Of a DNA stretch of 64,000 nucleotides, positions 5,379 to 62,666 are shown piece by piece. The stretch is taken from positions 605 through 64,604 of IMG/VR virus record IMGVR_UViG_3300010367_000128, one strand, 5' to 3'. The notes under the pieces are model-generated. The model ran no database searches. It was not told the origin of the DNA and worked only from the letters and a program-made list of their open reading frames with translations. Origin of the DNA: a virus (taxonomy: Duplodnaviria; Caudoviricetes). Each line of letters begins with the position of its first letter. The first letter of the stretch is position 1. The translations under genes were made by a program, and so were the position numbers.

Positions 5379-6383
5379 ATGCCACGCGATACCGAATTCA
5401 ATCTGGACGACAGCAACAGCCAGGGCGGCGACGTCCCGGATATCTACGACGACGGCAACGGTGGGTTCACCGACGCCGACGGCAACCCGGTCGATGCCGA
5501 CGGCCAGCCGATCGAGCCCGAGGACCGTGGCGACGAGGTCCTCGAAGACGACCCGGACGCCAATGCGGACGGCAAGGGCGAGCCGACGCCCGATGACGAA
5601 CTCGACCCGGATCTCCTGGACGAGCTGGCCGGCGGCAAGTCCAAGACCGTGCCGATCACCCGGTTGAACGAAGTTCTCGACCTCAACCGCCAGCTGATGG
5701 ACATCATCAAGAGCGTCCCGTCGCTCCAGGCCGCCCCCGTCAAGGAGGACAAGCCGAAAGAGCCGACCTTCGACCTGGCCGCCAAGCTCAAGGAGCGCAA
5801 CGCCAAGCTGACCGACGGCGACGAGGAGGGTGCGCTGGCGCTCGACCTGGAGATCGAGGAGTACCGGATCAGCGAGGCCACCACCCGCGCCCAGGCCAAC
5901 GCCATCAAGGCGGTGACCCAGCAGAACGAGCAGAACGCGGTGCAGGCCGTGGCGGATGCGGCGGTGGTGAAATACCCGTTCCTGGAGACCGACAACGACG
6001 CCATGGACGAAGTGATGATGTATCGCGATCACTTCTTCAAGAAGGGCGCCTCGCTGTCGGTGGCGTTGAGCAAGGCGGTGGAAAAGGTCTGCCCGGCCAA
6101 GGCCAAGGAACTTGGTTTCGAGGATGACCCGCCGGCCGACAAGGAAGACAAGCCTGGCAAGAGCAAGCCGCGCGTGCTGTCCCTGGCCGAACTGCGCAAG
6201 GCCCGGGCGGTCAAGCGCAACGTGGGCGTCGAGCAGCGCCAGCCGCCGCGCGTCAATGGCACGGGCAACCCGAACAGCCGCACGATCAACCCGGCCAACC
6301 TCAACATCGAGGACATGCCGGACGAGGAGTTCAACGCGCTGCCGGAGGAAGTGAAGGCCAAGCTGCGGGGCGATACCGCATAG
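5379..6383 (+). CDS. Capsid scaffolding protein
   Basis: Acidic disordered N-terminus, VPITRLNEV, helical core, C-terminal DEEFNALPEEVKAKLRG; upstream of MCP; AAGGAG RBS. Confidence 0.8.
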   Translation: MPRDTEFNLDDSNSQGGDVPDIYDDGNGGFTDADGNPVDADGQPIEPEDRGDEVLEDDPDANADGKGEPTPDDELDPDLLDELAGGKSKTVPITRLNEVLDLNRQLMDIIKSVPSLQAAPVKEDKPKEPTFDLAAKLKERNAKLTDGDEEGALALDLEIEEYRISEATTRAQANAIKAVTQQNEQNAVQAVADAAVVKYPFLETDNDAMDEVMMYRDHFFKKGASLSVALSKAVEKVCPAKAKELGFEDDPPADKEDKPGKSKPRVLSLAELRKARAVKRNVGVEQRQPPRVNGTGNPNSRTINPANLNIEDMPDEEFNALPEEVKAKLRGDTA

Positions 6384-6419: not shown

Positions 6420-6656
6420 CCTGCGTGTGTCACCTTGGCAGGGGCGGACGTCCAGAGGCGGGGAGGCCCATCCTCCTCGCCGATGGTTTAGTTCAACCGC
6501 AGTGACAGGTAACGGCGCCTGCAAGCCGTGGGTCGCTCCCAACGCGTTTCAGCTTGACCCGAGCGTTAACAGGGTGGGACGAGGCAACCAACAAGCCTCA
6601 CGACACGAATGGCCGTCCTGGCCACGTCTTCCCCATCTTTCCGGAGTCAAGCAGCC
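6420..6656 (+). ncRNA. Candidate structured leader RNA of the capsid gene
   Basis: About 235 nt non-coding with at least six complementary helix pairs (see findings). Confidence 0.4.
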
Positions 6657-7757
6657 ATGGCCGCTACCAATTTTGCCGCCCTCACCCCTCGCCAGAAAAT
6701 CGTCTGGGCCCGTGAGGTCTGGAGCGAAGCGCGCGATAACACCTTCACCAAGCGTTTCACCGGCACGTCCGAAAACTCGATGATCCAGCGGATCACCGAG
6801 CTGACCAAGACGGAAAAGGGTGAGCGCGTCCTCATGCAGCTGGTGGCCGACCTCGTCGAAGACGGTGTGATCGGTGACAACCAGCGCGAGGGCAACGAGG
6901 AGGAGATGCAGTCCTATAGCCAGGAAATCACGATCGACCTGATTTCCCACCAGGTGAAGAACAAGGGCAAGCTCGCCGAGCAGAAAACGGTGCTCAACTT
7001 CCGTCAGCTCGCCCGCTCGCGCCTGGCCTACTGGCTGACCAACCGCATCGACCAGCTCGTGATGCTGAACCTGGCCGGCGTCAGCTACGCGTTCACCAAC
7101 TCGGGCGCCCCGCGCTCGTCCAAGTCGCCGTTCAAGAACCTCGCGTTCTCGGAAGGCAACAACCCGCTGACCAGCAAGCGCCACATGATGTGGACCGGCT
7201 CCGCGCTGGTGCCCTCGGACACCACGCAGGTGACCTCGGCCTACAAGCCGTCGTACGCCATGATCGTGGACGCCGTGGCCTACGCGAAGGATCACTACAT
7301 CAAGCCCCTCATGGACGGCGGCAAGGAGTATTACGTGCTCCTTGTCAAGCCCGGCACGCTGGGCGCGCTCAAGAAGGACCCGGACTACCAGCGCGCGATC
7401 GTCACCGCGATGCCGCGTGGCAAGGAAAATCCGTTCTTCACGGGCGGCGTGGTCACCGTCGATGGCGTGGTGCTGCACGAGCATCGCCTGGTCTACTCCA
7501 ACACGGCCGCAGCGGATGGCCAGCGCTGGGGTGCGGGTGGCAACGTCACCGGCACCCGTGCCGTCCTGTGCGGTGCGCAGGCGCTCGGCATGGCCGACAT
7601 CGGCTCGCCCGAGTGGGACGAGGAGTGGTTCGACTACAAGACCAAGCAGGGCATTTCGATCGACAAGATGTTCGGCTTGCTCAACCCGCAGTTCTATTCG
7701 ATCTACGACAAGTCGGTCGAGGACTTCGGCAAGCTGACCATAGACCTCTCCCTGTAA
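6657..7757 (+). CDS. Major capsid protein (N4-gp56/DUF4043-like)
   Basis: TNFAALT, IQRITELTKTEKGER..QLVADL..DGV.GDN..EGNEE, LCGAQALG.AD; GGAG RBS before ATG 6657. Confidence 0.92.
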   Translation: MAATNFAALTPRQKIVWAREVWSEARDNTFTKRFTGTSENSMIQRITELTKTEKGERVLMQLVADLVEDGVIGDNQREGNEEEMQSYSQEITIDLISHQVKNKGKLAEQKTVLNFRQLARSRLAYWLTNRIDQLVMLNLAGVSYAFTNSGAPRSSKSPFKNLAFSEGNNPLTSKRHMMWTGSALVPSDTTQVTSAYKPSYAMIVDAVAYAKDHYIKPLMDGGKEYYVLLVKPGTLGALKKDPDYQRAIVTAMPRGKENPFFTGGVVTVDGVVLHEHRLVYSNTAAADGQRWGAGGNVTGTRAVLCGAQALGMADIGSPEWDEEWFDYKTKQGISIDKMFGLLNPQFYSIYDKSVEDFGKLTIDLSL

Positions 7758-7768
7758 CCAGGGACGCG

Positions 7769-7806
7769 ACAAGCGGCGGTTTCCGCCGCTTGTTGTGGTG
7801 TTTTTC
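7769..7806 (+). terminator. Stem-loop after MCP (terminator or mRNA stabiliser)
   Basis: ACAAGCGGCGG-TTT-CCGCCGCTTGT 11-bp stem followed by a T-rich tract. Confidence 0.7.
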
Positions 7807-7836
7807 GTCCATCCCATTGCCCATACAGGTGCCGTC

Positions 7837-8280
7837 ATGTCCCTCCAGAATCCCAAGCTGATTTCGAACCTCGACGGTCGAGCGGCTGTCGCCGCCGGCT
7901 ACATCGAGCTGACCCTGGCCAACTTCGTCGCGCGTAACAACGTGATCGACATCGACCTGCCTCCGGGTAGCGAACTGGTCTCCGGCCACCTCAACGTCAC
8001 CGACGCGTTCGACGCGGCCACGACCGACACGATCAAGGTCGGCGACAACGCGAACGACGCCCGCTACCTGGCCGCCTCCACGGTCAAGGCCACCGGCCGT
8101 ACGGTCCTGGTCCCCACCGGCTTCATCAATACCGGCGACACGCATACGCTGCGTGTTACCCGCGTGGCGAGTGGCACGGCGGCGACCAAGGGCACCGTGC
8201 GCATTTACTTCCAGTATGCCGAGATCGGCAAGTCCGACTGGACCCAGGGCGATCAGGGCGCGGGTTACTATCCGACCTGA
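7837..8280 (+). CDS. Capsid cement/decoration protein (Bbp16-like)
   Basis: IDLPPGS...G.LNVTDAFD..T..IKVGD....RYL beta-rich pattern; follows MCP. Confidence 0.65.
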   Translation: MSLQNPKLISNLDGRAAVAAGYIELTLANFVARNNVIDIDLPPGSELVSGHLNVTDAFDAATTDTIKVGDNANDARYLAASTVKATGRTVLVPTGFINTGDTHTLRVTRVASGTAATKGTVRIYFQYAEIGKSDWTQGDQGAGYYPT

Positions 8281-26112: not shown

Positions 26113-29100
26113 ATGGCGCGTGATCCGAACGTTGACCGACTGATTGCCGCGCTATCGACGCCTCCCCCGCCGGAAGACACGCCGAAGGTGCAGGCCTCCG
26201 ACTTCGGCAAGCAGCTCGGCAGCGGCGCCCTCCAAGCCGTCGGCTACGGCCTGGAGGGCGTCGGTCAAGCGATCAACGCCCCGTCCAATGGCAACGGCCA
26301 GCAACCGCTCGTCGATGCCTCGCCGATCACCGCGCTGGGCCGACGCATCGCGGCCAAGGGGACCGAGGTAGGCAAGTCGGTCTCGCCCACCGCCGCGCAG
26401 CGCATGGCGGCGTCGACGCCCGACGGCACGTTCACCGATCCGTCGTCGTGGACGCTGGGCAGCGATCCCAGCGTCAGCGGCTACGCGCTCCAGGCGGCCA
26501 ATGTGCTGGGCCAGGTGGCGCCGGTCGCCGCCACCGCGTTGGCCACGCGCGGGCGCATCCTGCCCACGGCCGGTGTCTCGGCGGCCTTGGGCGGTGGCGC
26601 CGCCGCCGGTCAGGAGGAGGACCGGATCAACGCGATGCCCGCCGAGCAGCTGGCCACGCTGCCGGCCTACCAGGACGCCATTGCGCGTGGCATGTCCCCC
26701 GCCGCCGCGCGCGATCGCCTGGCCAGCCGGGCCGGGCAGACCGCGTTCGCGCAGACCGCGCCCGTGTCGGCGCTGTCCGGCCTCACCGAGGGCTTGCCGA
26801 TCACCGGCCAGTTCCAGAACGCCTTGGGCAAGGTGGTGGGGACCTCGCGCGTGGCCCGCGCGGTGGCCGGTGGCGTCACCGATGCCATCGCCGAAGGTAG
26901 CCAAGAGGCGCTGGAGAACGCGGCCGAGATCAGCGGTGCGAACACCGCCACGGGCGAGGACCGCTCGCTCCAGGAGGGCGGCGTGCAGAACGCCGTGCTG
27001 GGCGCGGTGGGTGGTGCCGCTGTCGGTACCGCTGGTGGCCTTATACACAACGGTCACGGCGCCCCCGTATCCTCGGACACCCCGGTCGCCGCCCCTGCCT
27101 CCGCGCCGGGCGAAGCCCCGGCCGCCCCACCCAAGCCGGCCGCCGTCAGCGCGCCGTACCAGGCTGGCGCGGTCAACCCGCTGACCGGCGATATCAATGT
27201 CGCCCCGGGCGTCAACGTCAACCCGAACGACGGTCCGCTGTCCAAGGCGCTCGGGACCGGCGCCGTGGTCGGGGCCATGGACCGCCCCGCCATGGTGACG
27301 ATGGACGACGGCAGCGTCGTCCATGGCGAGACCGGCGAGGTCTTGACCGGGCCGTCCGAGCAGATCGCCCAGCAGCGCGAAGCCGACGCCAAGCAGGCCA
27401 AGGCCGCCGCCAAGACGGCCGAGGCGCCTGCCCCGTCGCAAACCGAATCCAGCAACGAGCTGGCCCTGGATCTCCCACCGGCACCGGCCCCTGGCACTGC
27501 CGTGGAAAATGCCCCGGCATCACCCGTGGCAAATGCCGAGGCAACGCCAACGCCAACGCCAACGGTGACCGAACCGGACACGACAACCGCCAGCGTGCCG
27601 TTCTTCATCACCATGGCCCAGCGTGCCGAGCTGCGCGCGCGCGGGGTCGACAACGATGCCATTCGACGGATGACCCCGGCCGAGGCCCAGCAACGCTTGG
27701 CCCAACCCGCGCCAGTCACGGCGGATATTTCTGGATTGAATAAGCGTCAGTTGACGGCGCAGGCTCTCACGGTTGAGCAGGAACAGGCGAAGCGCATCGA
27801 CCTCCTTGGTGACGAGGCAAAGCTCACTGCGTATGCAGCGGATAAGGGCGTTTCCGTTGATGAAATGCGAGCTACCCTCCAAGCCAACCATCAGGTGAAT
27901 ACCGCGCGTCTGGATCAGCTCAATAAAGCCCTGGCAACAGCTCCCGACGACCCGGTGAAGCCCGTCACCTCTTGGAAGGACGTCCCCGCGAACCAACAGG
28001 CCCTTGATGCCGCCGTGGCCGAGGCCTATGCCCAGCGCGGCGTGCTCGACGCGCAGGCGACCGGCGCCCTGGCCAAGCGGCTCGGGGTGACCCGTCAGGA
28101 GGTCGCCGAGGCGAAGAAGCGCGTTTCCGGCACGGCCCCGGCGGAGGCCACGCCGGCCTCGGCCACGACTTACCCGACCGTCATCGCCGCCAATCGCGCG
28201 CGCCGAGCGATGGCCGATCCCAATACCTTCGTGGTTGCCCAAACCGGCCCGAAGGCCTACGAGCTGCGCCCTGTCGGCGCGGCGGAATCTACGAGCCAGG
28301 AGAACAGTAATGGCAACGAAGAAGCCAAGCCCGTTCGGCGGGAAGGTGGTCAGCAAGTCGGTCCCAATGCCGGCGAAAATGCGCCAGGCAATGAACGGCA
28401 AGCCGGCAGCGAGGAAGGCGGCACCGCCGTCCAAGGTGGTCCAGCGCCGGACGCCGGTAGCGCGACCGGCAGCGGCGGGAGCGGGAGCGATTCCGGCGAT
28501 GCCGTTGCAGCCGTCGGCGAAGCTGGGCGGGGGCGTGGCGGTGCCGACGAAAACGCCCGTGGCGGCAGCGGCACCGAAACTGCGGACCTCGGGCGGGCAG
28601 TCGAAGATGGGCGGCAAGGCCAAGCCGTCGCCGATGGCGGCACGGGCCGCGAAGATGCTCTCCAGCCGACCGAAGTAAACGAGAGCGGCGAGCTGTTGGA
28701 TGGGGATATCACCACGCCCAGCGGCTCGCCGTTCACCATCCGCGACGCGGCCGAGAAGACCGCCGCGCGTCACCCTGGCCACAGCGTGGTCGAGCTGGAG
28801 GACGGCGGCTACGTCGTCCGTGAAGGAGTGCGAAATGAGCAAGCCCCTGCTAACGAGGAGCCCGTTTCTGGACGAGCTGGTCCTGATGGAAAAGCTAGCC
28901 GAGCCAATGAAGGAACAGAGGAACGCGCTGGCGCGAGCGTTTCCGATGGAGCCGTGGCCGGAGAGCCCGCCGGAGCCGTTGAAACTCCAGCATCTAGCGA
29001 CAAGTTACCCGCTCGTGGTGAAACGCCCGTAGCCACCAACCCCGATGAAGCGCTGGCCAAGGCCCGCAATGGTGACCCGCTTGCGCCGAAAGAACAGAGG

Positions 29101-32100
29101 CTCCTCGCCCGCCGCAAGGTGATCGAGAAGCTGGACGCGGCGAAGCTCTATTCCGATATCAGCGGTGCCAGCAAGTCCGCCGCGACCAAGGCGATCAACG
29201 CCATGGAAACGGCGAAGGACCGCAGCGGGGGCGTGCTCAAGGACGGCCTGCGTGACGTGGCGGCGGTGATCGAGGCCGCGCAAAAGGCCATCCCGAAGGG
29301 AGCCAGCGCGAGCGAACAGACCGTGGACGGTATCAACGCCGTGATGGAGACGTTGAGTAAGAAAAAGCCGAAGCCGAAGGCGGACGCAGTGCCCGCGCCC
29401 GGCAAGGGCGAGGGCGTCAACGAGAACCGCGCCGACCAGCCGGCCTTGTTCAGCAAGAACACCGCCAGCACGCCGACCGCTCGCACGCTCGATCCCGAGC
29501 GCGTCACCGCGCAGGTGACGAAGATCACCTCGGCCTGGAAGAACGCGCCGCTGGTGCGCGTGGTGGCCACCGCCGCCGAGCTGCCGGCGCACATCCGCGT
29601 GGCGGCCGGGTTCGACGCCAGCGTCGAGGCCGCGCACGAGAACGGCGCGATCTACATGATCGCGGACAGGTTCAGCACGCCGGCCCGCGTGCAGCAGGTG
29701 CTTGCGCACGAGGCGATCGGCCACTACGGCGTCGAGCAGATCCTCGGCCCGCAGGGCTTCCGCAACGTCCGCGACCAGCTGATCGTCGCGCGCGACGCCG
29801 GCCGGCTCAAGGAGCTGTTCGCCGAGATCGATAGCCGGTACGGCACCCTGGACAACGACACGCTGGCGTCCGAAGCGCTGGCGGTGATGGCCGAGCGAGG
29901 CACGCGCACGCCGCTGCTTGGCCGCGCCCTGAACGCCTTGCGCGCATTCCTGCGCTCGCTGGGCTTCACCATCACGTTCAGCGAGGGCGACCTGCGCCAC
30001 ATCCTGGCCAACGCCGGCAAGTGGTTGGAGTCCGGCCGCGCGCGCCCGCTGGTCAAGTTGCGCGAGGAGGCCTCGTTCGCCTCGGGCGAGACCTCGGCCG
30101 GCGATCCGGAGTCGAACGATTCGCCCTTCGACGAAGGCTGGTGGGCCAGCGTGCCCAACCGGGGCGACAGCGCGGTGGTCGCCGACGCACGTCGGCAGTG
30201 GGCCGAGAAGGGCACCGAGAGTCCGTACTTCAAGGAATGGTTCGGCAACAGCCAGGCCAAGACCAAGGCGGGCAAGCCGGTGACGTTCTACCACGCCACC
30301 AACGGCGATTTCTCCGTGTTCGACACGACCAAGGCAGGCACCTCAACCGGCTACGCCGCGTCTGGCCTGGGCATCTTCCTCACGCCCAACCAAGACACCG
30401 CCAGCCGCTACGGCGATCGCGTCATGCAGCTCTACGTGAAGGCGGAAAAGCCCTACCGCATGGGCGTCGACGAACTGTCCAGTTTCGAGACCGTCGGCGA
30501 TGCACGGCGACGCCAGCAGGAACTCGCCGCGCAGGGCTATGACAGCATTTTTGTGCCGGCGGACAAGACGCTGATCGCCTTTGGCGCCGACCAGGTGAAA
30601 AGCGCCACCAGCAACCGGGGCACGTTCAGCGCGGCCACCCCGGATATCAATTTCAGCAAGTACGAAAAACCGGCGCCGGAGTTCGTACCCGATGGAAAGC
30701 AGACCGAGACGAAGGCCTTCAAGGAGTGGTTTGGCGAGTCGAAGGTGACCAACGAGGACGGTACACCAAAGGCGGTTTTTCACGGCAGCACGGCAAATAT
30801 CGAATCGTTTAAGGGTCCAGCTTACTTCAGCGAAGACCCGACCGAAGCCAGTGCCTACACCTTCGCCAGTCGGCTGGCGAAGCGTGAAAAGGCGCTGGCA
30901 AACAGCAAGTACAAAACTGCCAAGGGTGCGGAAAAGTACGCCGGACAGCGGGTGGATTACACCGGGATCGTCGATGATGACAATTCGGTAGGTAAGCCGT
31001 TCGCCACTGACCAGGGCGTGGTTATCCGTAATGCCGACGGCACGATCACCGCTTTCACGGACCTGGTGGGCGATAAAAAGACGTTCAATCTCCAGGACAT
31101 GACCATCGAGCTAAAGCGTGGTGACGGCAGGAAGGCCGCGCGGAAGCTGGTCACGGATTACCGCGAACACATCGATGATCGCTTTCCGCCCGGCAAGGGC
31201 GTCAATGGCAACGTCACGCCGGTGTATCTGGCCATCGAGAACCCGATGGAAATGCATCCACACGTCGCCAACCGATTCGGCGCCCGGCTTGGCGGAACCA
31301 GCGAGGAGTGGGCGGCCACCGTCGCCGACTTGGAAGCCAAGGGCTACGACGGCATTTCGACGATCAGCGACGATCCAGGTGCGCCATATGGGACGAAACA
31401 GTGGATTCCTTTGCGCCCCGAGCAGATCAAATCGGCGGTAGGGAATAACGGAGCTTTTAGCAAGGCTGACGAGCGCATCACCTTCAGCAAGAACCCCGCC
31501 GCCGCGCTCAACGACGATATCGAGAAGGCCGCCAAGTTCAAGGTGACCGACATCGTCGACACGCTGCGCGACAAACGCGAGGACTGGCGCCCGAACTGGT
31601 TGGGCATGCTCACCCTGCGTCAGCTGGGCGAGGTGGCCGCGCCGTACCTGCCGAAGATCGGCGCCTACACCGACACCGTGCAGACCATGCAGACCCGCCG
31701 CAACCAGCTCCAGGAGAGTGCGGCGAAGACCGCCGACAAGTGGTGGCAGTGGCAGCGCAAGAACCGCGAGGCGGGACAGGCGATGGCCGAGGTGATGCAC
31801 GATGCGACGCTGTCGGGCGTCGACCCGGCGGAACCGTTCCGCCCCGGCAGCGTGACCCTGGCCGGCGGGATCACCGTGCCGATGACCGAGGCGGCGGTGG
31901 CCAAGGAGGTACGCAGCCTGGAAGCCAAGGCAGCGAACGCGCCCAAGCAGGTGAAAAGCCTGTTGCAGGCCGACATCACGCGGCTCCAGGAGGCGCTGGC
32001 GCAGGAAGCGGGCCGGCGTCAGGCGTACCCGGAACTCAAGCAGCGCTATGACGCGCTGCCCGAGGGTGCGAAGGCCATCTATACCGAGGTGCGCGATGCA

Positions 32101-34305
32101 TACACTGAGCGCGCGGACGCGATGCAGGAGGCATTGGTGCAGCGCATCGCCGGCCTGGAGCTGGGCGAGGCCGCGCGCAAGGATCTCACCGATCGCGTGC
32201 GTGCCCACTTCGAATCGGCCCGGGTGCAGGCCCCATACTTCCCGCTGGCGCGCTTCGGCGAGTATTGGGTGGCCGCCGAGAAGAACGGGGAGAAGGAATT
32301 CCGCATGATGGAAAACCGCGCCCAGCAGCGGCGCGTGCAGAACGCCTATGCCAAGGAGGGTTGGACGACCAAGGCCGGCGCCAAGCTCGACATGCTCCAG
32401 GCGGTCGACGGCGCCAGCGCCTCGTTCATGGCCCAGGTGACCGAAAAGCTCAACGAGGCGAACGTGGACAAGGATGTCACCGACGAGATTTATCAGCTCT
32501 ACCTCCGCACGCTGCCGGACCTTTCCGTGCGCAAGCAGTTCATCCACCGCAAGGGTGTCGCCGGCTACGACCAGGATGCGCTCCGCGCGTTCGCCGGGCA
32601 CATGAACCACGGCGCCTACCAGCTGTCGCGGCTGGAGAACAGCCAGGTGATGGAGACCTTGCTGCGGACCATGCGCAAGGACGTCGAGGCCTTGAGCGAG
32701 GGCGGCGGCGTGGAGGCGGTCAAGGCCGCGCGGGCGATGAGCGAGGTCGACAAGCGGCACCAGTGGATCATGAACCCGAAGGACGCGGCGTGGGTCCAGC
32801 GCGTCTCCTCGGCCAACTTCGCCTATTACCTGGGCGCTACCCCGGCCGCCGCGCTGGTCAACGTGCTCCAGGGCGCGGTCACGACCTTCCCCGCATTGGC
32901 CTCCAAGCACGGCTGGGTGAAGGCGCTTTCCGCCTTGACCTCGGCCACGAACGCCTCGATCCGCACCTACGGCAACATCGAGAAGACCCTGCGCAACGCC
33001 GACGAGCGCACGGCCTACGAGCAGTTGCTCGCCATGGGCGCGATCGATCGAACGCTGTCGCACGACCTGGCCGGCATGGGCGAAGGCTCGCTCCTCTCCT
33101 ACAACCCGGCGTGGCGCAAGACCATGGGTGTGCTATCGCACCTGTTCCACAAGGCCGAGGTGTTCAACCGCGAGGGTGCGGGCCTTGCCGCGTATCGCTT
33201 GAGCCGCGAGGCGGGCGAGACCCACGAGGCGGCGGTGAAGTACGCCGCCGACACGATTTTCCAGACCCATTTCGACTACTCCAACGCCAACCGCGCCCGC
33301 TTCATGCAGGGCAATGCGGCCAAGGTGCTGTTCGCCTTCAAGCAATACAGCCAGTCGATGACCTATTACCTCTGGCGGAACTTCTACCAGGCCACGCGCG
33401 GCGCGAGCCCGCAGGAGCGCAGCGAGGCGCGGAAGAAGCTGGTTGGCACGCTGGGCATGACGGCGGTGTTTTCCGGCGTGCTCGGCCTGCCACTGATGAC
33501 CCTGTCGATGCAGGTCGCCAACGCCATGGCGGCGATGTTCGGCGACGACGACGAGCCGTGGGATGCCGAAACGGAGTTCCGCAACTTCCTGTCCGACTTC
33601 CTCGGCCCCACCTTCGGCCGGATCGCCCAGGTCGGCCCGGTGCAGGCACTCACCGGCCTGGGCATCGCCGACCGCACCAAGCTCGATCAAATGTGGTTCC
33701 GTCCCTCGGATAAAGAACTGGAGGGCCGGGCCGCGTACGACTACCTGCTTGAACAGGTCGCCGGTCCGGTCGGTGGCATGTTCGCCAACGGCTACCGCGC
33801 GGGCCAGCTCTACGCCGACGGGGAACTCTGGCGTGGCATCGAGACCGCCATGCCCAAGGCGGTCAAGGACGCGTTGAAGACGATCCGCTATGCCAACGAG
33901 GGCGTGCGCACGCTGTCGGGCGATCCGCTGGTGCCCGACCTGTCGCCGTATCAGATCGCGATGCAGGCGGCCGGGTTCTCCCCGGCCGAGGTGTCCGAGC
34001 GCTACGAGGCGAACAACGCGATGAAGGGCTACGAGCAGACCTTGGTGAAACGCCGCCAGTCGCTCTTGGACGCCTACGCGATGGCCACGCAAACCCGCGA
34101 CATGGAAGCGGTGCGCGCGGCCACGGAGGCCATCGAGCGGTTCAACCGGAAGAACCCGGAAATCGGGATCAACGCCAGCACGATCCGGCGCAGCTTGCAG
34201 TCGCGGCAGAAGTACAGCCAGCGCATGGTCGATGGCCTCGTGCTCAACCCGAAGCTGGATGCACGCCTGCGCGCGGCGGTGTCCTTCGACGATCAAGGGG
34301 AGTGA
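26113..34305 (+). CDS. Giant polyvalent internal virion protein (metallopeptidase-like, two ART-PolyVal-like and PLxRFG domains)
   Basis: AHEAIGHYG (~29700); FKEWFG.S....G.P...H..GYD..QxKSA..N.G.FS twice (30217-30660, 30706-31491); YFPLARFGEY (~32240). Confidence 0.85.
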   Translation: MARDPNVDRLIAALSTPPPPEDTPKVQASDFGKQLGSGALQAVGYGLEGVGQAINAPSNGNGQQPLVDASPITALGRRIAAKGTEVGKSVSPTAAQRMAASTPDGTFTDPSSWTLGSDPSVSGYALQAANVLGQVAPVAATALATRGRILPTAGVSAALGGGAAAGQEEDRINAMPAEQLATLPAYQDAIARGMSPAAARDRLASRAGQTAFAQTAPVSALSGLTEGLPITGQFQNALGKVVGTSRVARAVAGGVTDAIAEGSQEALENAAEISGANTATGEDRSLQEGGVQNAVLGAVGGAAVGTAGGLIHNGHGAPVSSDTPVAAPASAPGEAPAAPPKPAAVSAPYQAGAVNPLTGDINVAPGVNVNPNDGPLSKALGTGAVVGAMDRPAMVTMDDGSVVHGETGEVLTGPSEQIAQQREADAKQAKAAAKTAEAPAPSQTESSNELALDLPPAPAPGTAVENAPASPVANAEATPTPTPTVTEPDTTTASVPFFITMAQRAELRARGVDNDAIRRMTPAEAQQRLAQPAPVTADISGLNKRQLTAQALTVEQEQAKRIDLLGDEAKLTAYAADKGVSVDEMRATLQANHQVNTARLDQLNKALATAPDDPVKPVTSWKDVPANQQALDAAVAEAYAQRGVLDAQATGALAKRLGVTRQEVAEAKKRVSGTAPAEATPASATTYPTVIAANRARRAMADPNTFVVAQTGPKAYELRPVGAAESTSQENSNGNEEAKPVRREGGQQVGPNAGENAPGNERQAGSEEGGTAVQGGPAPDAGSATGSGGSGSDSGDAVAAVGEAGRGRGGADENARGGSGTETADLGRAVEDGRQGQAVADGGTGREDALQPTEVNESGELLDGDITTPSGSPFTIRDAAEKTAARHPGHSVVELEDGGYVVREGVRNEQAPANEEPVSGRAGPDGKASRANEGTEERAGASVSDGAVAGEPAGAVETPASSDKLPARGETPVATNPDEALAKARNGDPLAPKEQRLLARRKVIEKLDAAKLYSDISGASKSAATKAINAMETAKDRSGGVLKDGLRDVAAVIEAAQKAIPKGASASEQTVDGINAVMETLSKKKPKPKADAVPAPGKGEGVNENRADQPALFSKNTASTPTARTLDPERVTAQVTKITSAWKNAPLVRVVATAAELPAHIRVAAGFDASVEAAHENGAIYMIADRFSTPARVQQVLAHEAIGHYGVEQILGPQGFRNVRDQLIVARDAGRLKELFAEIDSRYGTLDNDTLASEALAVMAERGTRTPLLGRALNALRAFLRSLGFTITFSEGDLRHILANAGKWLESGRARPLVKLREEASFASGETSAGDPESNDSPFDEGWWASVPNRGDSAVVADARRQWAEKGTESPYFKEWFGNSQAKTKAGKPVTFYHATNGDFSVFDTTKAGTSTGYAASGLGIFLTPNQDTASRYGDRVMQLYVKAEKPYRMGVDELSSFETVGDARRRQQELAAQGYDSIFVPADKTLIAFGADQVKSATSNRGTFSAATPDINFSKYEKPAPEFVPDGKQTETKAFKEWFGESKVTNEDGTPKAVFHGSTANIESFKGPAYFSEDPTEASAYTFASRLAKREKALANSKYKTAKGAEKYAGQRVDYTGIVDDDNSVGKPFATDQGVVIRNADGTITAFTDLVGDKKTFNLQDMTIELKRGDGRKAARKLVTDYREHIDDRFPPGKGVNGNVTPVYLAIENPMEMHPHVANRFGARLGGTSEEWAATVADLEAKGYDGISTISDDPGAPYGTKQWIPLRPEQIKSAVGNNGAFSKADERITFSKNPAAALNDDIEKAAKFKVTDIVDTLRDKREDWRPNWLGMLTLRQLGEVAAPYLPKIGAYTDTVQTMQTRRNQLQESAAKTADKWWQWQRKNREAGQAMAEVMHDATLSGVDPAEPFRPGSVTLAGGITVPMTEAAVAKEVRSLEAKAANAPKQVKSLLQADITRLQEALAQEAGRRQAYPELKQRYDALPEGAKAIYTEVRDAYTERADAMQEALVQRIAGLELGEAARKDLTDRVRAHFESARVQAPYFPLARFGEYWVAAEKNGEKEFRMMENRAQQRRVQNAYAKEGWTTKAGAKLDMLQAVDGASASFMAQVTEKLNEANVDKDVTDEIYQLYLRTLPDLSVRKQFIHRKGVAGYDQDALRAFAGHMNHGAYQLSRLENSQVMETLLRTMRKDVEALSEGGGVEAVKAARAMSEVDKRHQWIMNPKDAAWVQRVSSANFAYYLGATPAAALVNVLQGAVTTFPALASKHGWVKALSALTSATNASIRTYGNIEKTLRNADERTAYEQLLAMGAIDRTLSHDLAGMGEGSLLSYNPAWRKTMGVLSHLFHKAEVFNREGAGLAAYRLSREAGETHEAAVKYAADTIFQTHFDYSNANRARFMQGNAAKVLFAFKQYSQSMTYYLWRNFYQATRGASPQERSEARKKLVGTLGMTAVFSGVLGLPLMTLSMQVANAMAAMFGDDDEPWDAETEFRNFLSDFLGPTFGRIAQVGPVQALTGLGIADRTKLDQMWFRPSDKELEGRAAYDYLLEQVAGPVGGMFANGYRAGQLYADGELWRGIETAMPKAVKDALKTIRYANEGVRTLSGDPLVPDLSPYQIAMQAAGFSPAEVSERYEANNAMKGYEQTLVKRRQSLLDAYAMATQTRDMEAVRAATEAIERFNRKNPEIGINASTIRRSLQSRQKYSQRMVDGLVLNPKLDARLRAAVSFDDQGE
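28310..28678 (+). CDS. Nested +1-frame ORF: 122-aa basic, histone-H1-like protein
   Basis: AGGAG 7 nt before ATG; mostly G/C-ending codons in this frame; 16 K, 8 R, no D/E. Confidence 0.55.
   Translation: MATKKPSPFGGKVVSKSVPMPAKMRQAMNGKPAARKAAPPSKVVQRRTPVARPAAAGAGAIPAMPLQPSAKLGGGVAVPTKTPVAAAAPKLRTSGGQSKMGGKAKPSPMAARAAKMLSSRPK
28835..29032 (+). CDS. Nested +1-frame ORF, 65 aa
   Basis: AAGGAG 6 nt before ATG; host-frame codon bias relaxes over this stretch. Confidence 0.45.
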   Translation: MSKPLLTRSPFLDELVLMEKLAEPMKEQRNALARAFPMEPWPESPPEPLKLQHLATSYPLVVKRP

Positions 34306-57942: not shown

Positions 57943-58406
57943 CCGCTCCAGCAATGCGCGCGGTCATGCGCATGCGGAACAGGATGTACGCGCGCCGCCC
58001 GCTCAAGCCGCACATATTCCTGGCCTACCCCGGAAGCGGGGACCCGCGATGGATTGCCACCTATGGCGTTTACACGGGATATGGCGCCAGCGCCGTGGAA
58101 GCCGAGGAAGACCTGGCCCGCTTCGCTGGCGCCTGTCGGGCTCGACTCGTTCTTCACCACCTATACGCGCAAGCACCTGCCGCCACCGTGGAGACCCAAA
58201 CCGTGACCAATCCACGTCCCAGCTTCTACAAGCCCCACCTCAGCGTCAACGTCATCCCCGGCAACTCGCAGAAGTTCCGCTGGCGCGCGACGTTCGAAGG
58301 CATCGACGGATTCGGCCGAAGCCCGCGCGCCGCCATGATCTATCTGGAGGCCGAGTACAAGAAGCGCCTATGCACTGCGTACGTCCCATGGAGGGCAACG
58401 TCATGA
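57939..58406 (+). CDS. Hypothetical protein
   Basis: AAGGGGG RBS; two weak internal repeats (KPH......W.AT..G..G.G.S...A). Confidence 0.62.
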   Translation: MTAPAMRAVMRMRNRMYARRPLKPHIFLAYPGSGDPRWIATYGVYTGYGASAVEAEEDLARFAGACRARLVLHHLYAQAPAATVETQTVTNPRPSFYKPHLSVNVIPGNSQKFRWRATFEGIDGFGRSPRAAMIYLEAEYKKRLCTAYVPWRATS

Positions 58407-58507
58407 ACGACCGAACGAAAGCCATGGCCTGGGTATTCGCCGCTGCCTGGATCGTGCTGGCCTGCATCTCGGCGGCCTTTACCACGGCACTGATGGGTGA
58501 TCGATGA
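58403..58507 (+). CDS. 34-aa single-TM peptide
   Basis: GGAGG RBS; hydrophobic helix. Confidence 0.5.
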   Translation: MNDRTKAMAWVFAAAWIVLACISAAFTTALMGDR

Positions 58508-58743
58508 CCACCCGCCTCTCTCCCCCCAACCCTGACCGAGTCCGTGAGGCACGCCTACAGGCTGGCCTCACACAAAGCGAAGCGGCGTCCGTGGTGCATT
58601 CCACCGGCCGACGCTGGCGCGAATGGGAAGCCGGCGACCACCGGATGCCCCCTGCCTCCTGGGAGCTGTTCCTCCTGCGCACCCAGGCCGTGATCTTCAC
58701 CGAGCCGGCCGAACTGGCCGACATGCCACCCGTCAAGGAATAA
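58504..58743 (+). CDS. XRE-type HTH regulator (Aca-like)
   Basis: P.P..VREARLQAGLTQSEAA.......WREWEAG..RMP.A.WELF. Confidence 0.82.
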   Translation: MTTRLSPPNPDRVREARLQAGLTQSEAASVVHSTGRRWREWEAGDHRMPPASWELFLLRTQAVIFTEPAELADMPPVKE

Positions 58744-58747
58744 TCCG

Positions 58748-59779
58748 ATGCGTTCTTCACTCCTCAGTTTGGGCCGAGCTATCGGCCACGTACTCACCTA
58801 CGCCGCCGAGGCATCCCTTGTGATGCTTGCGTTCATGCTCGCCATCGTGGTCTCCAACATGTTGCTCAATGTTTGGGAGAGCGCAGGAATTAGCGGCGTC
58901 GTGAAGGGAATTTTGACCGTCCTGGTGATTCTCACGGCCGTTAAGTTCGGCTCTTTGCGCACGCGTACACGCGAAATTCTCGATAGCCGTCAGCAACTTA
59001 CGAGACAGTTGCTTATGGTGGAGGAAGAAATTGTGCAAGTTGGCGCGGACGTTCGGGCCATGACGGAGGCCACCAGCGAGGGCGTCAAGGCGATGCGAGA
59101 CGCGCTGGAGGCGACACTGCAAGCCGTGCTGAACATGGAGGCGACCAGGCCACCTGTGGATTTCGTCAGTGACGAGAAGTTCGAAACGCTGCCCGAGAGC
59201 GTGAAAGCCAAGTTGCGCGGTGGTGACACTACCTTGGGCGAGTTCGCCAAGTCGGAACCCGACCCGAAGCGGTTCCAGTTCTCCGAGGAGGAGTACGCGA
59301 GCCTGGCGCGTGAGCCGGTGAAGCCGCCCACCCAGGGCGTGGCGGACGTGACGCTGGGCGATCAAAGCGGATTCGGCCAGCCTGCGGTCGACTACCGATC
59401 GACGCTTGCCATGGAGGAGGCCGCGCGCCATCGCCGGGTGGCCGAGCTGCGGCAGGACTTGGCCACCGAGAAGCACGAAGGGCGGCGGAGGGGCTTGCTC
59501 GACGAACTGACGCACCTGTCGCTGCGGGTGGACGCGGGCAACTGGCCCAGCCACGCGCCGGACGAGAAAGGCGCCTCAGCGCTGTTCGCCAGCGGGCAGG
59601 GCAAGCAAGTGAACGTGCTGGCCAGCGAGGAGACCGTGGAGTGCGAAACCTGCGGCGGTCGAGGCGAGGGAGTCGAACCGTATGTCGGCGGCGGCGGCAG
59701 GCACCAGGAGCGCACGGTGCCGTGCCCCGACTGCGATGGCCAGGGCTTCACCTTGGTGACCAAGGCGGGCGACGAGTAG
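58748..59779 (+). CDS. Membrane protein with coiled coil, scaffold-like motif and DnaJ-type zinc finger
   Basis: Two N-terminal TM helices; DEKFETLPESVKAKLRG; CETCGGRG...CPDCDGQG. Confidence 0.75.
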   Translation: MRSSLLSLGRAIGHVLTYAAEASLVMLAFMLAIVVSNMLLNVWESAGISGVVKGILTVLVILTAVKFGSLRTRTREILDSRQQLTRQLLMVEEEIVQVGADVRAMTEATSEGVKAMRDALEATLQAVLNMEATRPPVDFVSDEKFETLPESVKAKLRGGDTTLGEFAKSEPDPKRFQFSEEEYASLAREPVKPPTQGVADVTLGDQSGFGQPAVDYRSTLAMEEAARHRRVAELRQDLATEKHEGRRRGLLDELTHLSLRVDAGNWPSHAPDEKGASALFASGQGKQVNVLASEETVECETCGGRGEGVEPYVGGGGRHQERTVPCPDCDGQGFTLVTKAGDE

Positions 59780-59781
59780 CC

Positions 59782-60114
59782 ATGCACCCACGCCGCCCCA
59801 TGGAGCCCAACAGCAAGGCCAGCCGCATCCTGCGCGTGCTGGCCGAGGGACCGGCCACCACTGCCGAGGTGGCCGCTGAACTCGACCTACCCATCAAGAT
59901 CACCTGCGCCCACCTGGGCAACCTGGTGATCCGGGGCAAGGCCCGCAAGCGCCGGTTCACCGGCAAGGGCCACGGCAAGACGATGCTCTGGAGTCTTCCC
60001 GAGCACGATATCGACAGGCATACTCACCGCGCGCCATCGACCCCGGTGGTGCACCCGGCCCCTGCGGAGTTCCTTGGCGACGCAGGGGCCGGCCCTTCCA
60101 AGCCGAGGCGTTGA
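59782..60114 (+). CDS. Winged-helix DNA-binding protein
   Basis: RILRVLAEGPATTAEVAAELDL......HL.NL...G. Confidence 0.7.
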   Translation: MHPRRPMEPNSKASRILRVLAEGPATTAEVAAELDLPIKITCAHLGNLVIRGKARKRRFTGKGHGKTMLWSLPEHDIDRHTHRAPSTPVVHPAPAEFLGDAGAGPSKPRR

Positions 60115-60145
60115 CCAACTTTCGCCGGCAATCCCCCTGCCGCAG

Positions 60146-60169
60146 ACCCGCCCCGAGCGGGTTTTTTTT
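60146..60169 (+). terminator. Rho-independent terminator
   Basis: ACCCGC-CCCGA-GCGGGT ending in a T8 run. Confidence 0.8.
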
Positions 60170-60309
60170 CGCCCCAAGCAGGGCTATCCGGCGGTATGCG
60201 CCTGGGGGCCGGTGATTGTTCATACCGTACCGGTGTTTCTGCACACCACATGGCCATCGATCGGCTTATTGGAACGAAACCGCGAACGATGACGTAGGCG
60301 GTTATAGCC

Positions 60310-60430
60310 TATCGTATGCCACTGCATAAGCCACTGCATTACCACGGCACTACCCGTGGATATGCCCCCGCGATGCCATTCAATAGTCATAGTCATAAAG
60401 AGCTATAGAACCCCTATAGTCCCCTTCCCG
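60310..60430. repeat. Intergenic iteron-like array (candidate second origin)
   Basis: GCCACTGCAT x2 plus degenerate copies at 11-12 bp spacing, ATAGTC repeats, 18/20 match to the initiator-internal array. Confidence 0.6.
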
Positions 60431-60479
60431 TTTGGCCTAGCCCGCCTGTATCGTTCGCGCTACACCGGGGAGCAACGCC

Positions 60480-60986
60480 ATGGCCAATCAGCGAGACAGC
60501 GAGACGCCTGGCCCTGCCTTTTGGCTCCAGGTGCGTCTCCTTCGCCTGCTCGGCTGGAGCAACGGGCTGGAAGGCTGGTTGTCCCTGATGGCCACCTGCT
60601 GGGGCCTGTCGCTCCTGGTCTATCCGAGCTACTGGACGCAGACCTGGAGCGCCTACCGCAGCGAATGGCCGATCACGCCGATCCACATGGCGTGGGTGCT
60701 GACGATCTCCGGCGCGCTGGGCCTGGGCAGCATGAAGACCCGGAGCCGGCACTGGCGCATGCAAACCAGCGTGCTCGCCTTCATCGCCTGGGCCTGTCTG
60801 GCCGTCTACGACCTGGCCGTGCCGCCGCTGCCGCTGGTGCAGGCGTTCGTCATGCACAGCCTGATCGCCATCGCCGAGCTGGGCGTGTACGTACGCATCC
60901 TGATCGGCTTCGACTCCAAGACCTCGCAGCTGGCCAGCTACATCGAACGCCCCACCGACAAGGACGACGGCGCATGGAAGTCCTGA
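60480..60986 (+). CDS. Four-TM membrane protein (holin/antiholin candidate)
   Basis: GGGAG RBS; four hydrophobic segments; starts the lysis block. Confidence 0.6.
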   Translation: MANQRDSETPGPAFWLQVRLLRLLGWSNGLEGWLSLMATCWGLSLLVYPSYWTQTWSAYRSEWPITPIHMAWVLTISGALGLGSMKTRSRHWRMQTSVLAFIAWACLAVYDLAVPPLPLVQAFVMHSLIAIAELGVYVRILIGFDSKTSQLASYIERPTDKDDGAWKS

Positions 60987-61372
60987 AAGACATCATCGAA
61001 ATGGCCAAGCAGTACGGCGTGATCGGCGCCGGCTGGATTCTCGTCTTCGGTGGCGTCGTGTGGGTCGCGGGCCACGGCGGCAAGATGGCCTTGAAGAACG
61101 TGAAGGAGCTGCTGGACGCCAGCGACAAGCTGCGGTTGTCCATGCAAGACCAGCTCGATCGCGCCAACCAGTCCGAGCGCGAGACGGACATGCAGAACCG
61201 CCGGCTGGTGATCGAGAACGCCGACCTGCGAGCCTCGATCGATCAGATGCGCCGCGACATGGAGCGGGCCGCCGCCCGGGCCGACCGCATCGAGCGCGAC
61301 AACCAGGACGCCCAGGTGCGCATTCGGACCCTTACCGAGGAACTTCGGTCCCTCTCCGCGAGGCTGACGTGA
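60974..61372 (+). CDS. TM plus coiled-coil protein (holin candidate)
   Basis: One N-terminal TM helix, long heptad tail. Confidence 0.62.
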   Translation: MEVLKDIIEMAKQYGVIGAGWILVFGGVVWVAGHGGKMALKNVKELLDASDKLRLSMQDQLDRANQSERETDMQNRRLVIENADLRASIDQMRRDMERAAARADRIERDNQDAQVRIRTLTEELRSLSARLT

Positions 61373-61692
61373 ATGCGCGCGAACGGCTTACCCGCTTGGT
61401 CGAAGATGCCGAGGCCGCTGCATCCGGTGGCCACGCCACGGTCGCCGAACGCCTGCTCCAGCACCGTGAACTGCTCGTGGCGATCCGCGAGCAGATCGAT
61501 GCGAACGCACGCCTGCGTGATGCCGTGCTCGAAATGCTGGCGCTGGTGCGCCTGTACCCGGTCTATTCGACAGACTTTCGCGATGGCTCGGCACCGACCC
61601 GTCACCGCTGGGGCCTGCGTCCCGGCAAGGCCGAGGCGTTTGACCGCGCCATCGAAAAACTGAGCCTGATCGCCAGGGAGCCCACTGCATGA
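61369..61692 (+). CDS. Hypothetical protein
   Basis: GAGG RBS, GTGA coupling. Confidence 0.55.
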   Translation: MNARERLTRLVEDAEAAASGGHATVAERLLQHRELLVAIREQIDANARLRDAVLEMLALVRLYPVYSTDFRDGSAPTRHRWGLRPGKAEAFDRAIEKLSLIAREPTA

Positions 61693-62666
61693 ACGCCTTA
61701 GCCACCGCCGTCCAACGCACGTTCAAGCCGCCGCGCGAAGTCAGCGCCAGCGGCATGTCCTTCATCCAGCACGCCGAGGGCGAGCCGGGCACCGGCAAAC
61801 CCATGCTCACCGCCTACCAGGACGACAAGGGCGTGTGGACGATCGGCTGGGGCCACACGGCGGGCGTTGTGCCCGGCATGCGCATCACCGTGGGCCAAGC
61901 CATAGGCCTGCTCGATAGCGATCTCGACCAGGCGGAAAACGCCGTCGCGACTATGGTGCTGGTGCCGCTCAACGACAACCAGTTCGACGCGCTGGTCTCG
62001 CTGGTGTTCAACATCGGCGTCGAGGCCTTCCGTGCCTCGACCTTGCTGCGCGTGCTGAACCAGGGTCGTTACGACTTGGTGCCGGCGGAAATGGCACGCT
62101 GGAACAAGATCAAGCCCAAGGGTAAGCCGTCGCGCGTGGTGCCGGGCCTGACCAATCGCCGCGCCAGTGAGGCAGCGCTGTTCCTCACCGTGCCATCGAT
62201 GTTGCCCTTGCCGCTGCTTGGCACTGTCGACGCGGCCAAGCGGCTGGGCAGCAACGACCCACAGGAGGCACCCGACTTCTCGCAGGTCGAGGCCAGCGTG
62301 GTCCCCGACGACGAGAACATCACGATGGCCTCATCGCCCGCCATGATCCCGGTGGCCGCGACCGGACCGTCGCCAGCGGTCGAGCTGTCCAACATCACGC
62401 CCACGCCACCGGCCAATTCGGTCGTGCAGACCCCGGCCGGCAAGACCGGCATCGCCGCCTTGTTCGCGGGCACGGGTGGCCTGGTCACCGAGGGCTATGC
62501 CCAGCTCCAGCCGCTTATCGATGCGTGGCGCTCGATCACCTGGGGCACCGCCGGGCTGGGCTCGTGGGCCAAGGTGATCGGCGTGGTTTTCATCGTCGGC
62601 GCGCTGGGCTTCACCGCCTGGTCGCTTTGGCAGCAGCACCGCAAGTTGTCGGGGAGGAAAGTGTGA
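61689..62666 (+). CDS. Endolysin, GH24 lysozyme with C-terminal membrane segment
   Basis: EG..AYQDDKGVWTIGWGHT, LNDNQFDALVSLVFNIG, GLTNRRASE. Confidence 0.92.
   Translation: MNALATAVQRTFKPPREVSASGMSFIQHAEGEPGTGKPMLTAYQDDKGVWTIGWGHTAGVVPGMRITVGQAIGLLDSDLDQAENAVATMVLVPLNDNQFDALVSLVFNIGVEAFRASTLLRVLNQGRYDLVPAEMARWNKIKPKGKPSRVVPGLTNRRASEAALFLTVPSMLPLPLLGTVDAAKRLGSNDPQEAPDFSQVEASVVPDDENITMASSPAMIPVAATGPSPAVELSNITPTPPANSVVQTPAGKTGIAALFAGTGGLVTEGYAQLQPLIDAWRSITWGTAGLGSWAKVIGVVFIVGALGFTAWSLWQQHRKLSGRKV

Follow-up and report, generated by a model that had tools for sequence, protein, structure and literature searches.

A predicted membrane-anchored zinc-finger protein with a copy of the scaffold C-terminal motif in the genome of a P22-type phage

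The C-terminal end of the P22 scaffolding protein is described as a hook in which Arg293 and Lys296 contact Asp14, Glu15 and Glu18 of the coat protein N-arm (PMC12005531), and P22 scaffold fragments 238-303 fused to foreign proteins are reported to suffice for their direction to coat protein (PMC9962691). In phage 80alpha, the C-terminal 16 residues of the scaffold bind beside helix alpha1 of the capsid protein N-arm, and the CpmB protein of SaPI1 ends in the same C-terminal helix-and-hook as the 80alpha scaffold and competes with that scaffold for a single capsid-protein site (PMC5644958). The proheads of T4 begin on the inner membrane with the chaperone gp40 (PMC9958956). We analysed a window of 64,000 nucleotides (nt), which is bases 605-64604 of the 64,604-bp IMG/VR virus record IMGVR_UViG_3300010367_000128. 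An open reading frame (ORF) at 58748-59779 of this window encodes a protein of 343 amino acids (aa) that combines a predicted membrane anchor, a copy of the tail of the phage's own scaffolding protein and a zinc finger. We tentatively read this protein, with considerable doubt, as a membrane-anchored binder of the capsid protein and an accessory factor of head assembly.

Like CpmB, the 343-aa protein is a non-scaffold protein with a short copy of the C-terminal element of the cognate scaffold, which in this phage is presumed to bind the capsid protein; the capsid-binding helix-and-hook of CpmB has RIIK (PMC5644958). As described in that source, CpmB is satellite-encoded, small, soluble and dimeric, has its motif at the C-terminus and redirects capsid size. 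In contrast, the 343-aa protein is encoded by a complete 64.6-kb phage with its own scaffold, is predicted to be anchored in the membrane, carries its motif internally and has an added zinc finger, and a relation in sequence to CpmB is not expected. The original prediction, made from the DNA alone, had stated that no equivalent was described, and this was too strong, as CpmB copies the C-terminal helix-and-hook of its helper's scaffold (PMC5644958). CpmB is the nearest described case of scaffold-tail mimicry, and T4 gp20/gp40 is the nearest membrane-linked head assembly. Full-text searches of the open-access literature did not find a membrane-anchored, phage-encoded protein with a scaffold tail. 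In the reading that we favour, the 343-aa protein would resemble T4 gp40, a factor encoded by the phage itself through which head assembly is begun at the inner membrane (PMC9958956). As a difference, gp40 acts on the portal gp20; the two are compared by description only. To our knowledge, gp40 has no scaffold-like motif. The scaffold of the phage studied here resembles P22 gp8 in its short basic helix-turn-helix end; the portal, too, is of the P22 type, and the genes run portal, scaffold, capsid with no protease gene among them. The tail of this scaffold differs from gp8 in that it has no sequence or fold match to solved structures, and the analogy is one of position, conservation and charge.

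The ORFs of the 343-aa protein and of the scaffold, the latter between the portal and capsid genes, were present as the original prediction had described them, and so was the resemblance between their products. When residues D142-G158 of the 343-aa protein (nt 59171-59221) are set against scaffold residues D315-G331 (nt 6321-6371), 13 of the 17 positions are identical, and a BLASTP comparison of the two proteins gave 13/22 identities with an expect value (E) of 3e-5. The codons of the 13 shared residues are the same in eight cases and synonymous in five, and the DNA identity over the motif plus flanks is 48/75. The five synonymous codons argue against a recent DNA copy and rather for selection. 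A hidden Markov model of 50 distinct scaffold tails from relatives, from which the phage's own genome was excluded, was run with all filters off against the six-frame ORFs of at least 30 aa in the window (1051 ORFs, 112,011 residues). The scaffold scored 36.7 bits (E 1.5e-10), the 343-aa protein 16.2 bits (E 4e-4) and the next best ORF 7.3 bits (E 0.24); in a second run of the profile on whole records, the copy in the 343-aa protein had an E of 2.2e-4. When the proteome was shuffled 1000 times (79 proteins per proteome, the scaffold omitted), no protein reached 16.2 bits, the maximum being 14.7 bits. From the profile and the shuffles, which are independent of the pairwise comparison, we conclude that the motif match is real at the level of this genome and is more than chance.

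The copy is also closest to the scaffold of the phage that encodes it. It is identical with its own scaffold tail at 13 of 18 positions, and with the 50 distinct tails of relatives at 12 (one tail), 10 (eleven), 9 (twelve) or at most 8 positions (twenty-six), with a median of 9. The phage's own scaffold tail itself matches any relative at no more than 11 of the 18 positions. VKAKLRG is common to the 343-aa protein and the scaffold at 7/7 positions, and both have VK where the relatives have EK, ER or another residue; L057 alone among the 50 distinct tails has VK. A strict motif pattern matched only the two copies in the window, the relatives carrying EK instead of VK. Neither copy is as close to any sampled tail as it is to the other copy, a pattern that would fit either derivation of the motif from the scaffold gene of the same genome or adaptation of both to a common partner.

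We then compared the tail across relatives. The ORF directly upstream of the capsid gene was collected in 77 related loci and was picked in 75; L026 and L052 have no such ORF. A recognisable common tail was present in 64 of the 75 loci, as 50 distinct sequences with the consensus ...QPP....G[VIM]G.RA....[IV]D-V..[LM][ST][DE][DE].[FY][DE].L[PS]..EK.[KR][LA]RGD. Wrong-frame or unrelated ORFs were left out of the profile (L002, L004, L005, L007, L023, L028, L043, L068, L069, L070 and L075). On whole virus records the profile found a normal tail in 28 of 28, including the records behind L004 and L043, and in all 50 distinct scaffolds the tail ends 0-11 residues before the stop codon. An AlphaFold2 (AF2) model of the last 120 aa of the scaffold (38 sequences) gave a confident helix-Pro-helix tail, with helices at 101-105 and 109-115 and a predicted local distance difference test (pLDDT) of 81-90 over the block. 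From these comparisons, the scaffold tail appears to be a conserved functional element throughout the lineage. Further from this lineage little was found: a search of the viral contigs gave no relative of the scaffold, and one of the phages collection gave only that of Acidovorax phage AP1 (29% identity). The tail profile gave only chance-level rows against PDB sequences (E at least 0.042), and a Foldseek search of the C-terminal model against the PDB gave no match. One PDB entry, 37sl chain A ("Cone-shaped protein SC1", 296 aa), has G.GAR....LTDEEFEAL with its elements in the same order as in the scaffold tail; its E of 0.25 against the scaffold C-terminal profile is not significant.

The charge of the tail varies together with that of the capsid protein. 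Relatives with acidic tails (S.EDEA.LAGD, EDEAxLAGD) have Lys at position 36 of the capsid N-arm in 8 of 8 cases, and those with basic tails (EK.K.RGD) have Asp or Glu there in 21 of 21. Further charge changes of the capsid protein are found at positions 44, 48 and 53. The scaffold tails concerned are those of loci L054-L071, and because this is a single clade split the covariation is only a hint that capsid position 36 and the tail charge form a candidate contact of hook and N-arm. By analogy with P22 and 80alpha, the scaffold tail would be a hook that binds the capsid protein. We infer this role from the position and conservation of the tail, its small basic helix-turn-helix form, the P22 and 80alpha precedents and the charge covariation.

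The two transmembrane (TM) helices of the original prediction were recovered as hydropathy peaks (Table 1). They are flanked by R2 and R10 before the hairpin and by K66, R71, R73 and R75 after it, and by the positive-inside rule these residues place both termini in the cytoplasm. The hairpin is thus predicted to leave about 275 residues in the cytoplasm, with the motif about 75 residues from the membrane. For the coiled coil of the original prediction, the low-confidence AF2 model of the whole protein offers only a long helix, which begins with the second membrane helix and extends as far as aa 132; it is followed by short helices at 144-147 and 150-157 (the motif, broken at P149 and of low confidence), 164-168 and 180-188. 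FSEEEYASL at aa 178-186, which had been noted as a weaker second motif, belongs to the second unit of an internal tandem repeat. Unit 1 (S141-E165) and unit 2 (S179-D204) share the pattern S[DE]E.[FY]..L..E.VK....G..D.TLG[ED], and their alignment score of 36 was matched by 13 of 2000 shuffles.

The assignment of a DnaJ-type finger held for the two CxxCxGxG repeats, C299ETC302GGRG and C326PDC329DGQG as read from the translation, but not at the level of the family threshold, as the DnaJ_CXXCXGXG (PF00684) score of 20.3 bits is under the 32.7-bit gathering cut-off. A homologue, P0002, passes with 34.1 bits. The DnaJ CR domain and small zinc-finger proteins of the Anti-TRAP type likewise have two CxxCxGxG repeats, one zinc centre and a role as a protein-protein interaction module. 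The 343-aa protein differs from DnaJ in its membrane anchor and its sub-cut-off Pfam score, and it gave no match at E of at most 0.1 to the J domain (PF00226) or the DnaJ C-terminal domain (PF01556). No PHROG family matched it at E of at most 0.01. A search of the ESM Atlas gave a best feature score of 0.78 and a structural TM score of at most 0.23, and so no lead, and a sequence search of the PDB with the family returned nothing.

A HMMER search of 1.84 billion representative proteins returned five at E of at most 0.001, including the 343-aa protein itself. P0002 (395 aa, E 1.7e-37) is 36% identical over the full length and is the only full-length homologue by this measure; P0003 (359 aa) had an E of 1.2e-8, and P0004 and P0005 are small proteins with the zinc finger alone in common. 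All four are single-member clusters from Logan assemblies, and P0002 and P0003 are known solely from these, on contigs of at most 17,185 and 8,613 bp. We count three full-length members among the representative proteins, and the family is tiny and new. In P0002 the hairpin in the membrane and the long helix after it are retained, and so are the RVDAGNWP hairpin and a pair of zinc centres. The PVKPPTQ...VTLGDQS..GQP segment is shared with P0003, and none of 500 shuffles gave as good a match. The domain order of P0003 is permuted, with an FSDEEYNAL helix before the zinc finger and the PVKPPTQ segment after it. Searches of the viral contigs with the 343-aa protein, P0002 and P0003, and of metagenome and genome contigs with the family alignment, gave no further homologue. 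A word-index search with the 343-aa protein found only itself, one with the family alignment found only it and P0003, and tblastn in the phages collection found nothing beyond the protein itself.

The ORF at 58748-59779 is a real gene, because its GC content at the third codon position is high (0.67, 0.45 and 0.80 at positions 1, 2 and 3, resembling the neighbours), a Shine-Dalgarno sequence (AAGGA) lies 8 nt upstream of the ATG, and the alignment of the full-length homologue P0002 begins at residue 1. The public gene call starts 24 codons later, at M25 (nt 58820), and gives a protein of 319 aa. We favour the ATG at 58748 because of the Shine-Dalgarno sequence and the P0002 alignment; the M25 start would cut away half of the first membrane helix. 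In the early/middle operon only one cistron comes after this gene, which thus lies where early expression gives way to late, as shown by the 4- and 3-nt gene spacings, the terminator and the lysis genes beyond. The strong terminator is followed by about 300 bp of non-coding DNA with lower GC content (60144-60480 overall), which is likely to be the early/late boundary and late promoter region, and then by the genes of the lysis region. The distance of about 53 kb from the head genes given in the original prediction is true of the linear map; around the terminal repeat, in a concatemer or circle, the gene precedes the scaffold gene by about 10 kb and the late operon by about 0.7 kb.

Table 1. 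Coordinates of the features of the window that bear on the 343-aa protein and its surroundings
Feature	Position (nt)	Strand	Remarks
Small terminase	828
Large terminase	1495
P22-type portal	3037-5154
68-aa ORF	between portal and scaffold gene
Scaffolding protein gene, 334 aa	5379-6383	+	flanked by portal and major capsid protein; relatives' tail profile matches C-terminus, E 1.5e-10
Scaffold tail PDEEFNALPEEVKAKLRG, then DTA and stop	6318-6371	+
Major capsid protein, Phage_capsid_3	6609-7757	+	Pfam E 1.9e-39; phrog_334 E 8e-85; presumed partner of the tail
2730-aa DarB-like protein, one of the tail and virion genes	26113-34305	+
RecT/exonuclease block	36.6-41.1 kb	-
Long early/middle region	41.4-60.1 kb	+
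Upstream gene, 79-aa Xre-type helix-turn-helix protein	58504-58743	+	Pfam HTH_31 E 1e-5; stop 4 nt before ATG of the 343-aa protein
Gene of the 343-aa protein (predicted membrane anchor, scaffold-tail copy, zinc finger)	58748-59779	+
Two hydrophobic helices, aa 22-42 and 47-67, 4-residue loop, predicted N-in/C-in hairpin	58811-58948	+	Kyte-Doolittle 19-residue windows 1.5-2.36
Long amphipathic helix, aa 68-132, possible coiled coil	58949-59143	+	AF2 helix aa 50-132, pLDDT about 58-72
Unit 1, aa 141-158, SDEKFETLPESVKAKLRG, scaffold-tail copy (helix-Pro-helix)	59168-59221	+	relatives' tail profile
Unit 2, aa 179-204, SEEEYASLAREPVKPPTQGVADVTLGD, degenerate repeat of unit 1	59282-59359	+	common to P0003
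Helical hairpin, aa 216-258, best-predicted part, ends RVDAGNWP	59393-59521	+	AF2 helices 216-240 and 244-258, pLDDT 72-84; conserved with P0002
DnaJ CR-type zinc finger, aa 297-335	59636-59752	+	Pfam PF00684 E 6.6e-4, 20.3 bits; shared with P0002-P0005
Downstream gene, 110-aa winged-helix (ArsR/DUF742-like) protein	59782-60114	+	weak Pfam matches, E 1e-4 to 2e-3; start 3 nt past stop of the 343-aa protein
Intrinsic terminator ending early operon	60144-60174	+	8-bp stem, 5 GC pairs, T8 run
Lysis region, with endolysin	61689-62666 (endolysin)		continues towards terminal repeat and head genes

If the scaffold tail is a hook, a copy that faces the cytoplasm would be expected to recognise the site used by the scaffold, either on capsid subunits that are still free or on shell intermediates that are still open. 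In the reading that we tentatively favour, the tail copy would bind the N-arm of the phage's own major capsid protein. The 343-aa protein would already be in the inner membrane when the late genes switch on, and would then capture newly made capsid protein there, with avidity possible if the long helix oligomerises; the zinc finger may be a chaperone-like protein-binding module. The net effect would be that procapsid assembly is localised, seeded or paced at the membrane, which in principle would resemble the membrane-bound start of the T4 prohead and its need for the chaperone gp40. The hook copy and the chaperone-type zinc finger might also couple head assembly to the inner membrane as a checkpoint, by seeding or holding capsid protein or by reporting its level to the flanking regulators of late genes or lysis. 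We think such a checkpoint, which is undescribed for P22-type phages, unlikely. A complex prediction of capsid aa 17-382 (31-row alignment) with aa 120-195 of the 343-aa protein stayed under the mark in both runs, with no control complexes, and speaks neither way. The membrane-anchored scaffold mimic proposed from the DNA alone is partly supported, by the significance of the tail copy, by the phage's own scaffold being its nearest match and by the predicted position of the motif in the cytoplasm, the site of capsid protein synthesis; the three roles that were attached to it (nucleating or tethering procapsids, blocking competitors and masking the capsid from defences) are proposals.

A number of results weigh against a capsid-binding role. 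The profile aligned with the 343-aa protein only over its last 18 positions (31-48 of 51), and the upstream conserved part of the tail (QPP..GxGxRA..[IV]D) is not in this protein, which has ATRPPVDFV there. The motif is internal (aa 141-158 of 343, with 185 residues beyond it), its gene is in the early operon at 58.7 kb, and it has RGGD where RGD is near-invariant in the tails of relatives. The AF2 model, built on a three-sequence family alignment, is poor, with a mean pLDDT of 53.5 and values under 50 over most of aa 131-217. Absence or drift of the motif in homologues, which the original prediction had named as evidence against itself, was found by half. In P0002 the first helix of the motif is missing and VEAAMRDG stands in place of VKAKLRGG, with both lysines replaced. 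Of the two units, P0003 has unit 2 alone, and that in a split form, with PDPRQFSDEEYNAL on the N-terminal side of the zinc finger and PVKPPTQ...VTLGDQSALGQP on the C-terminal side. These homologues were compared as proteins, without their scaffolds. The tail profile gave an E of 2.4 with P0003 and did not list P0002. A second tail copy was found in none of 27 related virus records, and of the 28 records only this genome has a second match to the hook part. In 32 related virus records no homologue of the 343-aa protein was found, and only their scaffold C-termini matched (E 3.5e-5 and 3.7e-4). The 17 host genomes with related prophages had no homologue either, and its absence from relatives means that the protein is dispensable for this capsid type. 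Because P0002 and P0003 are without it, the scaffold-type motif in its full form belongs to the 343-aa protein alone, on the background of a rare family that has a related acidic-aromatic helix. A capsid-binding role is still plausible, but it is weakened by the absence of the motif from the two homologues.

These family data are the reason why a resemblance without any role at the capsid comes a close second among the readings, although on its own we consider it rather unlikely. The protein would then belong to a membrane-anchored zinc-finger family with another job, in which an acidic-aromatic helix (F-S-[DE]-E-E-Y-x-[AS]-L) was duplicated and one copy came by chance to resemble the scaffold tail. 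Such a job might be regulating or sequestering one of the flanking DNA-binding proteins, providing a link to lysis or to the timing of the late genes, or acting as a membrane chaperone or protease adaptor. It is in keeping with this that unit 2, and not unit 1, is common to P0003, that P0002 lacks the first helix, that the match is of just 18 internal residues, and that the conserved core of the family consists of the TM hairpin, the hairpin at aa 216-258 and the zinc finger. The position of the gene would also suit this reading: it is 4 nt from an Xre-type helix-turn-helix gene on one side and 3 nt from a winged-helix gene on the other, and the terminator and late operon come directly after. 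A plant protein offers a precedent: FIP of the thylakoid is described as joining a membrane anchor to a DnaJ-like zinc finger and as binding FtsH5 (PMC5915565). However, a chance resemblance has to account for a profile E of 4e-4 that none of the 1000 shuffled proteomes equalled, and neutral resemblance does not predict a copy closer to its own scaffold than any of the 50 tails, the rare VK included. We rank a positive role at the membrane (tethering, seeding or chaperoning of capsid protein) highest, in view of the predicted co-expression of the gene with regulators shortly ahead of the late genes and of its best match being to its own scaffold.

Third in rank, and in our view improbable, is that the hook copy acts as a competitor. 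It would occupy the scaffold sites at the membrane and so delay or limit the phage's own assembly, as a timer, or it would trap the capsid protein of co-infecting relatives with the same tail, as a form of exclusion. The sequence evidence for binding would serve this proposal equally, and tail mimicry for competition has its precedent in CpmB (PMC5644958). From the operon structure, early expression would place the protein in the cell before the capsid protein appears. The 2TM effector model of PADLOC for cyclic oligonucleotide-based anti-phage signalling systems (CBASS; PDLC00696) gave a weak match (E 0.0028, 15.3 bits) to the hydrophobic region at aa 29-129, including both TM helices; however, this match sits on the TM segments and, for a scan of a whole library, lacks significance, and no partner defence genes were seen. 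Because the best match is to its own scaffold, a competitor would act against the very phage that encodes it. Nothing points to expression from a prophage, as no sigma-70-like promoter of its own was found in 56.5-62 kb and the gene has no moron-like features. PHROG and Pfam scans of the predicted genes detected no integrase or repressor family, though most of the capsid relatives are proviruses.

It is hardly credible that the motif is an encapsidation signal, by which the protein or a released soluble part of it would enter procapsids through the scaffold site and be delivered to the next host, its helices inserting like ejection proteins: P22 scaffold C-terminal fragments do direct fused cargo into capsids (PMC9962691), and the 2730-aa DarB-like and virion-RNA-polymerase-like protein of the same phage suggests that proteins are packaged, but the gene is in the early operon and not among the virion genes, the hairpin, flanked as the positive-inside rule requires, would be expected to stay inserted in the membrane of the cell that makes it, and between the portal and capsid genes neither a cleavage site nor a protease gene was seen.

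The remaining features of the genome are as follows. The record has direct terminal repeats and a completeness rating of 100%, and the GC content of the window is 65.8%. The relatives of the capsid protein (52-71% identity) are mostly proviruses, with hosts given in GTDB titles as Rhodanobacteraceae (70%), Halopseudomonas, Ectopseudomonas and Comamonadaceae. DNA of the genome was found in contigs of one soil-metagenome study (three runs, DNA); the pieces that cover it are short and identical, at a depth of 1-8, and have no variants in the motif. The true start of the major capsid protein is probably M17 (nt 6657), as judged from the consensus of 31 relatives, which begins MA.TNFAAL. Directly 3' of the capsid gene, the ORF at 7795-8280 (+) matches the PHROG "Rz-like spanin" (E 1.9e-7) and has a weaker match to a virion structural protein. 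Where it lies points to a head protein and to a misleading spanin label. In the 2730-aa product of 26113-34305 (+), the C-terminal 700 residues are similar to an antirestriction PHROG of the DarB-like kind (E 3.6e-179), there is also a match in a helicase segment, and the N-terminus weakly resembles virion RNA polymerase. The protein is probably packaged or ejected.

In the early region, a possible single-pass membrane peptide of 34 aa, MNDRTKAMAWVFAAAWIVLACISAAFTTALMGDR, lies at 58403-58507 (+) and ends at the start of the helix-turn-helix gene; its reading frame is seen only as the end of a longer ORF. For the downstream winged-helix protein, the 27 related records yielded one weak match (E 0.0015) and nothing that is clearly its counterpart, and since the early region is mosaic we draw no argument from synteny. 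Before the endolysin gene, 60480-61692 (+) encodes a 168-aa multi-pass membrane protein, a 131-aa protein with a TM segment and coiled coil (phrog_1009, E 8.6e-5) and a 107-aa ORF; these are candidate holin and spanin-like genes, without family assignment.

Phages and satellites, and nanotechnologists as well, use scaffold tails as handles to bring proteins to capsid subunits, and natural tail copies on non-scaffold proteins are so far known from helper-hijacking satellites, as in CpmB. If the motif of the 343-aa protein is inert, the protein still represents a tiny new family of membrane-anchored zinc-finger proteins. If the capsid-binding reading is true, the site or timing of P22-type head assembly would be controlled from the membrane, and the hook and the capsid N-arm would make a simple pair of peptide and partner, with a candidate charge pair at capsid residue 36.

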